Of a stretch of DNA of 64,000 bases, positions 21,432 through 63,567 are shown piece after piece. The translations under genes and the position numbers were made by a program. Below the pieces are notes generated by a model that saw only the letters and a program-made list of their open reading frames with translations, was not told the origin of the DNA and searched no databases. Origin of the DNA: Eledone cirrhosa (Eukaryota); the NCBI GenBank assembly GCA_964016885.1, contig OZ024750.1:19220001-19284000 (forward strand), written 5' to 3'. The number at the start of each line of letters is the position of its first letter. The first letter of the stretch is position 1.

Positions 21432-21888
21432 TATAAACGTTTGGAGTTGGAAGGCCAAGACAATGCAGGTATGGATATAGAATATAAATGCAAATGCAAA
21501 AAATATCGTTGACAATTAGTCTTTTACCTTAAATTTATTTAAATATCCTTAATTTTCGAGATAATATCTCTTCTTCGGAGGGAAGTAAAGGGGTTAATCC
21601 AGTGTTCTAATTAGCTTGCCAAGTCATGCTGACAGCATGACTTGGCAAGCATGACTTGGCAAGCTAATTAGAACACTGGATTAACCCCTTTACTTCCCCC
21701 CGAAGAAGAGATATTATCTCGAAAATTAAGGATATTTAAATAAATTTCAGGTAAAAGACTAATTGTCAACAATATCTTTTGCATTTGCATTTATATTCTA
21801 TATCCATACCTGCATTGTCTTGGCCTTCCAACTCCAAACGTTTATACCTCATTACGCAATGTTTCAAGTAAACTACAATTTCCTCCTT
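21432..21888. mobile_element. Fold-back element: 200-bp inverted arms with decayed hammerhead core, ~40-bp one-sided tail, within (TA)n
   Basis: Arms 21432-21631 / 21633-21846, about 4 mismatches, 14-bp duplication at centre; CCGAAGA-A-GAGAT-ATT-ATCTC-GAAA-AT-TA-AGG at 21700-21731. Confidence 0.85.
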
Positions 21889-21914
21889 TATATATATATA
21901 TATATATATATATA

Positions 21915-22372
21915 TACAATATTAAATAAATGGAAACTATATTTATAAAACCATATTTATTTCATTATATATATTTCAGGGATATCATACTAACAATATG
22001 CTATGCCTTCCTCAGACAAAATACAATATAAACAGTTTTATAGATAAATAGATTTGACATACCGTAACAACATCGACTTGTATTTGAAAAGTTGAATTGG
22101 CAGTTCAACTTTTCAAATACAAGTCGATGTTGTTACGGTATGTCAAATCTATTTATCTATAAAACTGTTTATATTGTATTTTGTCTGAGGAAGGCATAGC
22201 ATATTGTTAGTATGATATCCCTGAAATATATATAATGAAATAAATATGGTTTTATAAATATAGTTTCCATTTATTTAATATTGTAAATATACTCCAAATA
22301 CTTGTCGAGTGCTTTTATATCAGTTATAAATATTTACTAGTTGTAACCCAACAATTTAAATATAACTTTCCA
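21915..22372. mobile_element. Fold-back element: 182-bp inverted arms with hammerhead core, ~85-bp one-sided tail, within (TA)n
   Basis: Arms 21915-22096 / 22104-22285, no mismatch seen by eye. Confidence 0.9.
22177..22242 (+). ncRNA. Type I hammerhead ribozyme motif (mirror copy on - strand near 21958-22023)
   Basis: Stem I TATTTTGT/ATGAAATA; CTGAGGA 22185-22191; stem II AGG.ATA.CATA/TATG.TAT.CCT; GAAA 22223-22226; palindromic (AT) stem III ending in UA. Confidence 0.7.
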
Positions 22373-23373
22373 TATATATATATATATATATATATATATA
22401 TAAGGATTCACAGAAACCAATCGAGGTTGTTGTAAAATATCCTTCGATACAGTTCAGGTTTGTTATTTAACCTGATTATATTTTCGTTGTTGTGGTGACT
22501 TCTGTGGTTTTGTCCCCTTAACCACAGTTTTCAATTTGTCACGCCATTTAACGTATGTGTATTACTTTAAGATGTAACTTATCGATTTATCGATATCTTC
22601 TTATTGGGTGCTTCGTGCAAAGCTTCCGAATATTGTTATTTCGAGGATTCTGGCCGAGCGCCGCAATTTCGATTTTACTCACTTCCACTCTTATATATAT
22701 ATATATATACAGAGAAAGAGAGAGAGGTAGAGAGAGAGAGTGAGAGAGAGAGAGAGAGAGAGAGAGAGAGAGGGGTGAGGTATAACCTCGAACACGACGC
22801 CCTGCGGATTCGGCTTGTGCTCACTAAGCCGGAATCATATGGCGTTGATGTCTGGTTTATACCTTCCTCTATACCCTGCTTCTAATACATTGTGTACTCC
22901 CATGATTTGTGGTCACCCTGGTCTCAGCACCGCAAAAATATATGTATATATATATATATATGTGTGTGTGTGTGTGTGTGTGTTTGTGTGAATTTATGAA
23001 ATGAATTATTTTAGAAATAGGAGCAGGTATGTCAGTGTGGTTAAAGATCTGATTTCGTATCTACGTGATATCGGCTTCCACTCTAATCTCGGATTGGTAG
23101 ACGGAAATTGCAGACGTGCCATTTGTGTGTGCGCGCGCGCGCGCGCGCGCGCGTGTGTGTGTGTGTGTGTGTGTGTGTGTGTGTTTGCATGTGTATGTGT
23201 GTGCATGTGTGAATAATCAACAAATTCTCTTGACGGCTGTGCTCCAGCATTGCCGTAGTCTAATCATTGGAACCAATAAAAGAATCGAAGAATAAAGAAT
23301 GAAGAATATAATTAATTTTCAGTAAATTTCACAAGTACAAAAATACATTACTTTATCACACAGAAACCAAGAA

Positions 23374-23541
23374 TTATTTCGTGAAGGCCACTTTGGGAAA
23401 GACTACCCAACATGCTATGTTTTTGTGTATAATATCGAATGTGTTCTTCAGTTTTTTCTGGTAAGATATTTCGCTGTCATTTTTAGCGGGTGGAGGTACC
23501 ATGTAGAAGTACCCTGTTTGGTTCACCTGAGCTGCAATTTC
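23374..23541 (-). CDS. Candidate terminal coding exon (EIAAQVNQTGYFYMVPPPAKNDSEISYQKKLKNTFDIIHKNIACWVVFPKVAFTK*), gene unknown
   Basis: Complex non-repetitive sequence, 55 open codons after a CTAAT...TCTTCAAAG acceptor; no family recognised. Confidence 0.3.
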   Translation of the reverse strand, partial: EIAAQVNQTGYFYMVPPPAKNDSEISYQKKLKNTFDIIHKNIACWVVFPKVAFTK

Positions 23542-24568
23542 CTTTGAAGATATTATTATGATTAGAAAAACTGATAAAACTTTATGAAGAATCCATTTAA
23601 TTTCTTTAAAATTGAAATTGAAAAAAATAATAATAAAAAGAGATAGTTTCAACATCTGGAAGACACAAAGCACGTGTTTGTTTACACACACACTCACACT
23701 CACACTCACACACAGACACATATACTTAGACGCATTCATGTATATCATATATATATATATATATATATATATATAGGTATATACATATAAATTTATATAT
23801 ATAAATATATATATATATATATATATATATATGTATGTATATATACACTATACACAAGGAAAGAAAGAAAAAAACGGAAAGAAAAAAGAACGACGAATGG
23901 GAGAAAGAAAGATGCATATATATGAAAATAGAAAGTAATAGATAACATAAGCAAACAAGAGAGATAGAGAGAGAGAGAGGGGGAAAACTGACAGGGAGAG
24001 ATAGAGATAGAGATAGAGATAGATATATATAGATAGACAGATAGATAGAGAGAGTGAGAGAGAGATATTTAGATAGATAGAGAGAGAGAGAGCGAAGAGA
24101 GAGAGAGAGAGAGAGAGAGAGAGAGAGAGGGAGATAGAAAAAGACAGAGGGAGCTGTTATAAATATAAATATTTAGAAATATAGAAATGAAATGAAACAA
24201 TAACACAAGAAGAAACGACGAACAAACACATTTAGTTACTTTCTGATAAATTTTGTGTTAAAAGAAGACTTTAACATATTCAGTGAGAGTCGGGTTGCGT
24301 GTCAATATAAACGTCTGTAATTATATTACGTAATTAAGGTGAAAGAAACAAGTGTATATCACGCCAGTTAGCTTCCATCATAATTTGGCACCTTACACGG
24401 TAAACAAGTGGAAATAATATCCTTAGACCTCCAGCTACGAAAGATTCCCCCATCCTGGTAATCACAATGGCAATGTTTTTGCCAATTATATTATATACCA
24501 TGCAAGCTGGTAGTTGCAAAACCAGAGTGATGGAGATGTAGAGATGAAGGAGTAAAGAAAGTGGGGGG

Positions 24569-61357: not shown

Positions 61358-61685
61358 TGCATGGCTGAATGGTTAAGAGGTCCACCTCGCAATCATCAGT
61401 TGACGAGTTCAATCCCACTGCGTGGCATCTTGGGCAAGTGTCAATCCATACCTTGTGAAGAAATTGGGTAAACAGAAACTGTTTGGAAACCAGTCGTGTG
61501 GACTGTACCTGTAGTCTAAAGGGCCAGTCTTGTCCAACAATGTATGACCTTGAATCCCTCTGAGGAGAATTAAGTTATGGGTAGACAACCTCTGAAATAC
61601 ACAGCCACTTACACGTTAATATGATGAGCAGACTGTTCTTTTCATCGAACAACAGTTGGAACAGAGATCATTGAAACCAACAGAA
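61358..61685 (+). mobile_element. Degenerate family C-like SINE
   Basis: TGGCTGAATGGTTAAG, GAGTTCAATCCC, ATCTTGGGCAAGTGTC, CAGCCACTTACACGTTAAT. Confidence 0.7.
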
Positions 61686-62812
61686 GTCAATTACACTGTT
61701 ACTACAGGATATAGTTTCAATTTGTAATAATAAAAATTGAAATACTCTTATCGCTTTTACATATTATAGTATTATCGTTGTTTTTCAGAACCTCTAGAAC
61801 AAGTTGAGGATTCTTCTACCGCATGTTTTTGTTATGTTTTTATTTCTCTTTATTGGTTTCACATCTGAAGGAGCCTCGCTGTCTGCCGCGAATTGTTATT
61901 TTTCTTTTATCTGAAAGAGTCTCAAAGGACTGATAAAGTAATTCAAACTTTGTTTCGGTCATGTTTTCGTCTTACGTGGAAGTTAGTGTCAAAACTTAGA
62001 ATCTGAGCTAAGAGCGAAGAATAGAAACTGCAGACCAAAAATCAAACACACATGAAAGAAACTAAACTATGAAACTAGCAGTTAAAAAATGGTTAGAAAA
62101 CATTTTTGTGCGGTTATTTCTATTTTTGCTTTATATCTTTGTGTGTTTAATAATATTGTACAAAATAAGTTATTGTCAAAATTGTTCTACAAAACGCAAT
62201 TCGGATAAAATATCGGCTCGAGAAAATTTATTTTCGCCGTTCGATACAATGTAATTAAATGAAATTCGTACCACGAGCCATGTTATATATATACATATAT
62301 ATACATATATACATATATATATATATATATATATATATACATGTATATATATATATATATATATATATATATATATATATACATGTATATATATATATAT
62401 ATATATATATAAATTCGTACCACGAGCCATGGTATATATATATATATATATATATATATATATATATATATAAATTCGTACCACGAGCCATGGTATATAT
62501 ATATATATATATATATATATATATTTCTTATACAGATATATATTTCCCCTCCCCCAACCATATACTGTATATATATATATATACGTGTATAAGAAATACC
62601 TTAAATAAAACATGAGGTTCTGGGTTCAATTACTCAGCATAGTTTCTTAAGCAAGTACCGACAACCCCTACGTTTTCCAATAATCTATGCCTGGAACGCG
62701 ATATAGAACTCGATTTGCCACCAGAGTCATTAATGCGTTGTATATTTGATCCGAGTCACTGTATTTTAGTTCAAACCACGGTGATGTCTACTTACCCTTT
62801 CATTATGAAAAG

Positions 62813-63030
62813 GGCAGTGGATCAGCAATATCGGTAGAGCTTCGAGCAACATGCTTTGTGGCATATAGTTACGTCCTTTTATGTTATCAATTCATATCCC
62901 ACCGAGTTTAACGTTGCCTTTCATCCTTGCAGAGTCGATGAAATAAAGTACCAGTAACGTACTGGGGTCGATTTAATCGACTTTCCTCTCCCCTTCAAAT
63001 TACCGGCCTTGTACCTAAATCAGAAACTAT
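62813..63030 (+). mobile_element. Family A SINE, long form
   Basis: Includes GGGGTCGATTTAATCGACTTTCCTCTCCCC segment absent from many array copies. Confidence 0.85.
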
Positions 63031-63396
63031 TAATTCGAGACAATAAAAAAGTACCAGCCCAGGGCTAATGCAGTCATCTTTCCATCTTTCCTATCACCGG
63101 ATAAAGCCTTGATGTTCTGCAAGATCCAAAGAGTGGGAATTGATATATAAGCGCGCGTGCACACACACACACACACACACACACACACACACACACACAC
63201 ACACACACACACACACACACACACACACACACACACACACACATACACATATATATACATGCGTATATTGACATGTATTGTACGTCATCTACAACAAAAG
63301 CCAAATCAGCTAGATATTTTAAAGACAAACGGCAGATGAGTTTTAAACAATCATAATTTAAAATGATATATATATATATATATATATATATATGCA

Positions 63397-63567
63397 TTTA
63401 ATATAGAAATTGCTTCTACAGGACTAGAACTGTTTCATTCAGGAGAAATCATTCTCCGAATGAAACAGTTCTAGAAGCCATTTTCTATATTAAAAAAATT
63501 ATACTCTGCTATGTATTGAGTACTTTACTTACTGTGGTTACTCTCGATTGAACCCGGGATAAACTTA
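63397..63567 (+). mobile_element. Family P2 fold-back copy within (TA)n
   Basis: CTAGAACTGTTTCATTC / GAATGAAACAGTTCTAG arms; tail is reverse complement of 38661-38735. Confidence 0.82.

Follow-up and report, generated by a model that had tools for sequence, protein, structure and literature searches.

Short head-to-head stubs of Penelope-like elements in (TA)n microsatellites of Eledone cirrhosa: a probable product of two joined cDNAs

Hydra-clade Penelope-like elements (PLEs), among them Hydra-1_Obim of Octopus bimaculoides, have a short open reading frame (ORF) with a C-terminal GIY-YIG, the motifs RW[KR], DKT and CxCx5C and no CCHH, and they combine a hammerhead ribozyme in the pseudo-long terminal repeat (pLTR) with a (TA)n target, an inverted 5'-truncated copy and a tail on one side only (Craig et al. 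2021, PMC8557442). The same combination was found in Eledone cirrhosa, in a stretch of 64,000 nucleotides (GenBank assembly GCA_964016885.1, contig OZ024750.1, positions 19,220,001 to 19,284,000 of the forward strand) and in related copies elsewhere in the genome. The whole stretch is referred to below as the window, and all window coordinates are counted from its first letter. Whereas the published elements are full elements, those described here are mostly ORF-less stubs of 130-450 bp with tails of 43-165 bp, and the hammerhead sequence of one of their families, family C, differs from the hammerhead listed for Hydra-1_Obim.

PAc, a Poseidon element of Anolis carolinensis (Frangieh et al. 2024, PMC11167929), shares with the mechanism proposed below the cutting and extension of both target strands, two reverse transcriptase (RT) start sites, an uncut template RNA and an AT-rich target. 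RT starts inside the ORF in PAc, whereas the putative starts of family C lie before the ATG, and the available portion of that study is silent on the inner junction and on cap run-off. Penelope of Adineta vaga (Arkhipova et al. 2013, PMC3846280) has the same head-to-head inverted pLTR, one-sided tail and junction palindrome, with TATA and initiator-like motifs in the pLTR; its copy number is low, and its junctions were attributed to self-priming, with an antisense template as one possibility. Dual minimal hammerheads of Schistosoma mansoni, located on opposite strands 100-700 bp apart and attributed to truncated PLEs, include a U3-A8 variant (Cervera and de la Pena 2014, PMC4209133), and the accessible part of that paper contains no junction analysis. 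Animal non-LTR retrozymes (bioRxiv 10.64898/2026.07.22.740005) are likewise short, protein-less, derived from PLE pLTRs and equipped with a type I hammerhead, but they are tandem direct repeats, whereas the present stubs are inverted pairs. Penelope-like families are listed in an octopus repeat annotation, the consulted part of which does not mention such stubs (PMC13282606). The architecture of the stubs is therefore not new, given that inverted truncated copies with tails, (TA)n targets, pLTR hammerheads, opposite-strand pairs and two RT starts have all been published; the stubs are a known PLE footprint, ordinary for its genome. The stopping of both cDNA copies of family C at the likely capped start of the RNA is possibly an undescribed clue to PLE mobility, and no such cap run-off reading was found in the literature by all-words matching outside subscription papers and Repbase.

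The palindromic inserts of the window are short head-to-head PLE stubs in (TA)n, each probably composed of two joined complementary DNAs (cDNAs), with run-off at a capped RNA start proposed foremost for family C. According to this mechanism, the element enzyme would cut both target strands, and a cDNA would be primed at either end, the two beginning at fixed sites within an element RNA left uncut by its own ribozyme. The two cDNAs would then be joined at their far ends to give a head-to-head stub. In family C above all, starts near the 5' end of the transcript would allow both cDNAs to run off at the capped start 130-200 nt away, and this double run-off would produce uniform short hairpins; starts in the downstream pLTR would produce long copies crossing the promoter. 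A more general proposition, that PLEs routinely copy the capped 5' end of their mRNA from both cut strands and that what they most often make is two run-off ('strong-stop'-like) cDNAs linked cap to cap, is offered tentatively.

The six palindromic inserts reported in the initial annotation were all present at the sites claimed, with arms 97.6-98.8% identical. They fall into five sequence families, A to E, since the inserts at 38661 and 63397 are related, and the earlier estimate of about five families thus held. A sixth family, F, which was not in the earlier list, is represented in the window by four copies (5926, 33436, 46548 and 48164). The six inserts and their cores are as follows.

21433..21888, + strand: family A stub with a (TA)n run on either side; tail-less arm 21433-21630, tail-bearing arm 21648-21845 (98.0%), tail 21846-21888
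21700 (+) and 21578 (-): family A hammerhead-like cores, with C replacing U4 in both arms
21915..22371, + strand: family B stub; arms 21915-22105 and 22095-22285 (98.4%), tail 22286-22371
22185 (+) and 22015 (-): family B complete type I hammerhead cores
38661..38858, - strand: family C stub; tail 38661-38732, arms 38740-38797 and 38801-38858 (98.3%); its centre is the putative transcript start
38793 (-) and 38805 (+): family C complete hammerhead cores
45234..45827, - strand: family D stub; tail 45234-45289, arms 45290-45541 and 45577-45827 (98.8%)
45504 (-) and 45613 (+): family D complete hammerhead cores
45962..46307, + strand: family E stub; arms 45962-46048 and 46056-46142 (97.7%), tail about 46143-46307
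46051 (-): family E core with a first box of the U3-A8 type, in the tail-less arm only
63397..63567, + strand: older relative of family C; arms 63397-63447 and 63452-63494 (97.6%, 3 gaps), tail 63495-63567; first hammerhead box gone from both arms

Arm lengths were compared in 34 short hairpins out of 56 distinct copies from 59 loci, identical junction contexts having been merged. The longer arm was the tail-bearing one in 16 hairpins and the tail-less one in 12, with 6 ties (symmetry p = 0.57). In the long copies L095 (family C) and L170 (family B), the ORF was located on the tail-less arm and the tail-bearing arm measured 1.3-1.5 kb, a layout in which neither arm could arise by copying the other. 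These arm counts favour two RNA-templated cDNAs. The initial annotation had suggested that a truncated cDNA folded back and self-primed; because a lone cDNA that folds back must have the tail-bearing arm as its longer one, this is disfavoured as the general route by the 12 of 34 young copies with a longer tail-less arm and by the ORF-bearing arms of L095 and L170. A form of this explanation in which later deletions at the centre blur which arm came first was considered unlikely. It accords with the centre loops of 0-15 nt and their small templated insertions, with four junctions that extend along the stem I copy, and with the self-priming interpretation of the palindromic head-to-head junctions in Adineta PLEs (PMC3846280), but it leaves unexplained the fixed outer end of the tail-less arm, which a second RT start explains.

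That outer end lay short of the tail end by 66 or 76-79 nt in family C (22/23 calls), by 40-42 nt in family A (12/14) and by 144-147 nt in family E (6/10), some automatic end calls in A and E being long-range mis-pairings that were scored as misses. The junctions differed between copies, centres being variable and outer ends fixed, which answers the earlier question of whether the fold-back points vary. In Anolis PAc, cutting and extension affect both target strands, the tail is bounded by two internal RT starts, and uncut RNA is the main template (PMC11167929). By analogy with this in vitro measurement, the tail of the stubs may represent the distance between two start sites. The tails were one-sided, as previously described, although their lengths ranged from about 43 to about 165 bp and not 40-85 bp. 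Families B, C, E and F carry a hairpin in their tails, and E has one past the tail end as well; it was not found in A or D. Targeting of TA repeats was borne out as well: among 30 position-ordered copies of family C, 29 had TATATA no more than 25 nt from the end of the tail, compared with 9% of random positions. Ribozyme-cut RNA was rejected as a template, since none of 27 tail-selected copies started at the cut site.

The PLE origin suggested in the initial annotation was supported by longer copies of families A to E, which hold PLE RT and endonuclease frames, and by the tail in C, A and E, which continues straight into the ORF start. The parent of family C (L100/L101) has a tandem pLTR-ORF-pLTR structure with the ATG 42 nt past the tail end. 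A single ORF of 714 amino acids with RT and GIY-YIG endonuclease is present in L100, and RWR, DKT, YRDD, CxCx5C, YIG, CxxC and CxH were found in it by motif search. This set corresponds to the Hydra-clade definition as given in the available portion of PMC8557442 (RW[KR], DKT, CxCx5C linker, CxxC, CxH, no CCHH, ORF under 3 kb and (TA)n target). The partial tandem that forms the pLTRs was seen in L100/L101, and continuity of tail and ORF in L138, L150 and L157 (family E, where the tail enters a Hydra-type ORF start) and in L121 (family A). Partial frames with Hydra-type motifs were read by eye in families B and E, including a 517-codon frame on the tail-less arm of L170. By these motifs, families B, C and E are classed as Hydra-type; family F is probably Hydra-type as well, judging from one interrupted copy (L211). 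The Hydra-type proteins gave no match in the Pfam and PDB searches. RT and GIY-YIG frames were also located in the long family D copies L215-L218 and, for family A, in L121 and L106; Pfam returned weak RVT_1 and GIY-YIG matches for the D parent and a GIY-YIG match at the cut-off for the A parent. From comparison of motifs by eye with clade features, we tentatively take the parent of D to be Neptune-like and that of A to be Penelope/Poseidon-like.

According to the parent structures, the stub corresponds to a piece of the pLTR found in two places, at the 3' end of the copy and directly before the ORF in the transcript. An inverted 5'-truncated copy with a one-sided tail was seen in these families, as was a type I hammerhead in the pLTR, a predicted ribozyme recognised by pattern and pairing. 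A miniature inverted-repeat transposable element, or another DNA transposon with terminal inverted repeats, was ruled out by the one-sided tail, the variable centre and the RT-coding parents. Nor do the stubs have the tandem direct repeats, each with a complete hammerhead, that define non-LTR retrozymes; the short copies were inverted pairs.

The position of the inner ends was analyzed mainly in family C. Among the 30 position-ordered copies there were 16 short hairpins, 11 copies that reach at least 100 nt into the upstream parent, and 3 short singles. In short hairpins, 51 of 68 inner ends fell at 0 to +10 inside a single limit base and 5 of 68 upstream of it. The limit base is located six nt above the hammerhead core in the context CCAGATT, which fits the initiator consensus. 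Of 38 distinct long copies, 28 had TATAAA at precisely 30 nt above this base and 5 more had it at 32-37 nt, a spacing that these copies share by descent, so that the 28 are not independent cases. Extra bases were scored in the first 50 of 338 junctions with both arms reaching the limit base: 14 carried one extra base, always C or G and therefore ambiguous, and the other 36, with at least two, carried a non-parent G at 55 of 72 ends, the parent base at 14 and another base at 3. An extra G derived from cap copying marks full-length L1 insertions (PMC11702581), and promoters and start sites of PLEs lie in the pLTR (PMC2377424, PMC6765202). Taken together with the sequence around the limit base, these observations suggest a start site and a copied cap in family C. 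In family B, the short copies end at a single A that is about 105 nt above the ribozyme and thus distant from stem I, and short family A copies stop at the ribozyme or within 68 nt above it.

Two cDNAs could also have been made with their inner limit set by the structure of the RNA or cDNA, stem I in family C and A/T words in family F, instead of the transcript start. This explanation appears rather unlikely. The limit of family C does coincide with the first base of stem I, extra bases such as C, CA and CATC fit a stem I copy, and junctions of family F prefer AATT-type words. On the other hand, family C has a TATA box at -30, the ribozyme is 65-105 nt below the limits in B and A, and 11 of the 30 family C copies cross the same structure and continue.

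Several observations weigh against two cDNAs joined after run-off at a capped start, in addition to the shared descent of the TATA spacing. Since the family C limit is the start of stem I, snap-back of a cDNA onto its stem I copy would supply the same base as a cap and accounts for the extra G just as well; 4 of the 36 junctions carry 4-5 extra bases that fit such snap-back. A cap signature was sought in family F at a chosen position and was rejected, the extra G-equivalent being present at 8 of 100 ends and a control base at 5 of 100; instead, 76 of 100 family F ends run 1-5 nt into the T run of the parent and join at self-complementary A/T words. Family E copies, most of which are long, showed no pile-up of inner ends. 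In reads from other individuals, many family C arms pass the limit, like the long copies of this genome, and DNA reads over the upstream part of a C-related subfamily were a mixture of subfamilies that does not separate cap copying from snap-back. With regard to the number of cDNAs, the internal rearrangement of L095 may reflect a history of several steps, and fold-back products could have been made symmetrical by subsequent loss of sequence from the palindrome centre, which would blur the short cases.

Hammerheads were called by pattern and pairing, with a descriptor that was widened after the sequences had been seen, as the strict version missed families A, C, D and E. Among 29 palindromes (11 from the window and 18 from random stretches), 10 had an outward-reading core and none an inward one, compared with about 0 expected from shuffled arms. 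The outward polarity noted in the initial annotation was thus found again; it follows from the geometry of head-to-head joining and needs no selection. A ribozyme on both strands, claimed earlier for every insert, was found at the sequence level as two complete consensus cores at 21915, 38661 and 45233, and was contradicted at 21432 (C for U4 in both arms), 45965 (first box in one arm) and 63397 (first box lost). None of the six inserts was among the best 150 of 477 Rfam matches. A single complete minimal hammerhead was located at 38246-38317 on the - strand (Rfam HH9, 38.6 bits, below threshold), within an inverted repeat of about 15 bp and outside any hairpin stub. The U3-A8 core is a described PLE hammerhead variant (PMC4209133), and the parent of family F (long copies L086 and L147) has a full U3-A8 hammerhead with a stem II of about 55 nt. 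The short copies of family F end inside stem II and retain only the 3' half of the ribozyme.

When the family C stub was folded, the hairpin reached -100.6 kcal/mol, compared with -7.7 kcal/mol for the ribozyme monomer. The hairpin fold is thus predicted to bury the ribozyme, and, because of this difference, transcription reading through a stub is expected to yield simple long double-stranded RNA and not ribozymes. A separate non-autonomous hairpin class, moving as units with ribozymes on both strands, was the other explanation put forward in the initial annotation, and we regard it as highly improbable. Some junctions recur and there are thousands of near-identical copies, as such a class would predict, but most junctions differ from copy to copy, one junction is common to two subfamilies of F, and the stubs grade in a continuous series into kilobase-long copies of the same parents. 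Moreover, family F stubs hold half a ribozyme, and the hairpin fold excludes the ribozyme fold.

The local density of palindromes, regarded earlier as unusual, did not stand out: nine non-satellite palindromes were counted in the 64 kb of the window and 18 in 20 random 10-kb stretches (p = 0.19). About one palindrome per 11 kb in a genome of 3.0 Gb gives, by rough extrapolation, 2-3 x 10^5. A 58-nt piece of family C had 3,290 exact genomic matches. Head-to-head junction patterns matched 5,803 times for the C type, a short pattern that takes in several subfamilies, and 14,578 times for the F type, whereas the reversed controls matched 11 times and once. For family A, at least 40 genomic copies were scored among 2003 candidates; families B and D were examined from incidental copies, with 21 distinct tailed copies of B encountered in loci gathered for other families; genome searches with the B and D tails gave no match, probably because frequent words are passed over, although both families are common in the loci gathered. 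PLE copies of different families were also nested in each other's microsatellites (L062 7355-8341, L061 7644-9020 and L104 1966-2700), and the (TA)n of each family offers a target.

Fold-back artefacts of assembly or library preparation can scarcely account for the stubs. Perfect palindromes are a familiar read artefact, but the arms differ by 1-2% and the ends are fixed and family-specific. In a separate study, short reads of three runs span the family C centre and show the hairpin joints, although they cannot be assigned to a single locus. The stub structures are thus not peculiar to this assembly.

The origin of the inverted repeat and tail of PLEs is described as an open question in the available portions of PMC8557442 and PMC11167929. 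With thousands of young junctions per family, self-priming and the joining of two cDNAs can be tested against each other by computation alone, and the near-intact parent of family C is suited to in vitro work. If run-off at the capped start holds, the stubs would map PLE promoters. If cap-to-cap joining holds in general, some 10^5 stubs would record PLE starts and two-ended priming in vivo in three PLE clades, and the question of self-priming raised in 2013 would be settled. The stubs are also predicted to be a large potential source of perfect double-stranded RNA. RNA editing is extensive in octopus.

The copies of family F in the window, together with a remnant of a PLE coding region, are given below.

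46548..46735, + strand: family F stub, short hairpin with tail and the 3' half of the hammerhead only
5926..6086, + strand: family F stub, asymmetric hairpin with tail, flanked by (TA)n runs
48164..48345, - strand: diverged family F stub, whose tail meets an inverted duplication of the flank
33436..33625, + strand: family F tail without hairpin, running on into the downstream sequence of the parent
7600..8136, - strand: broken remnant of a Hydra-type GIY-YIG endonuclease with the same motifs as the C-terminus of L100

A Pfam search with the remnant at 7600..8136 gave no significant match. Next to the diverged family F stub, two 150-bp arms (99%) surround (GAT)n(TA)n at 47828-48162, the right arm directly meeting the family F tail at 48164. 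The family C stub is bracketed by a 46-bp inverted copy of unique flank (38603-38650 and 38880-38930); inverted flanks were flagged in 5 of 88 other family C loci by a crude screen, and some of these are other repeats. At 57746-58469, a 330-bp inverted duplication (99%) is centred on (TA)n and has no hammerhead or tail; its sequence is absent from the 134 other genomic loci compared, and it looks like flank mirrored at a TA break. Two short decayed palindromes (76-85%) with no recognisable hammerhead were found at 44675-44763 and 58485-58537. A GC-rich 20-bp satellite at 33752-35665 flips its orientation twice and so forms a large inverted array. Finally, an abundant SINE-like (short interspersed element-like) repeat of about 190-205 bp, often in tandems of 2-5 units, was observed at 2350-2765, 4620-5020, 11805-12214, 16632-17213, 30173-31136 and other positions.

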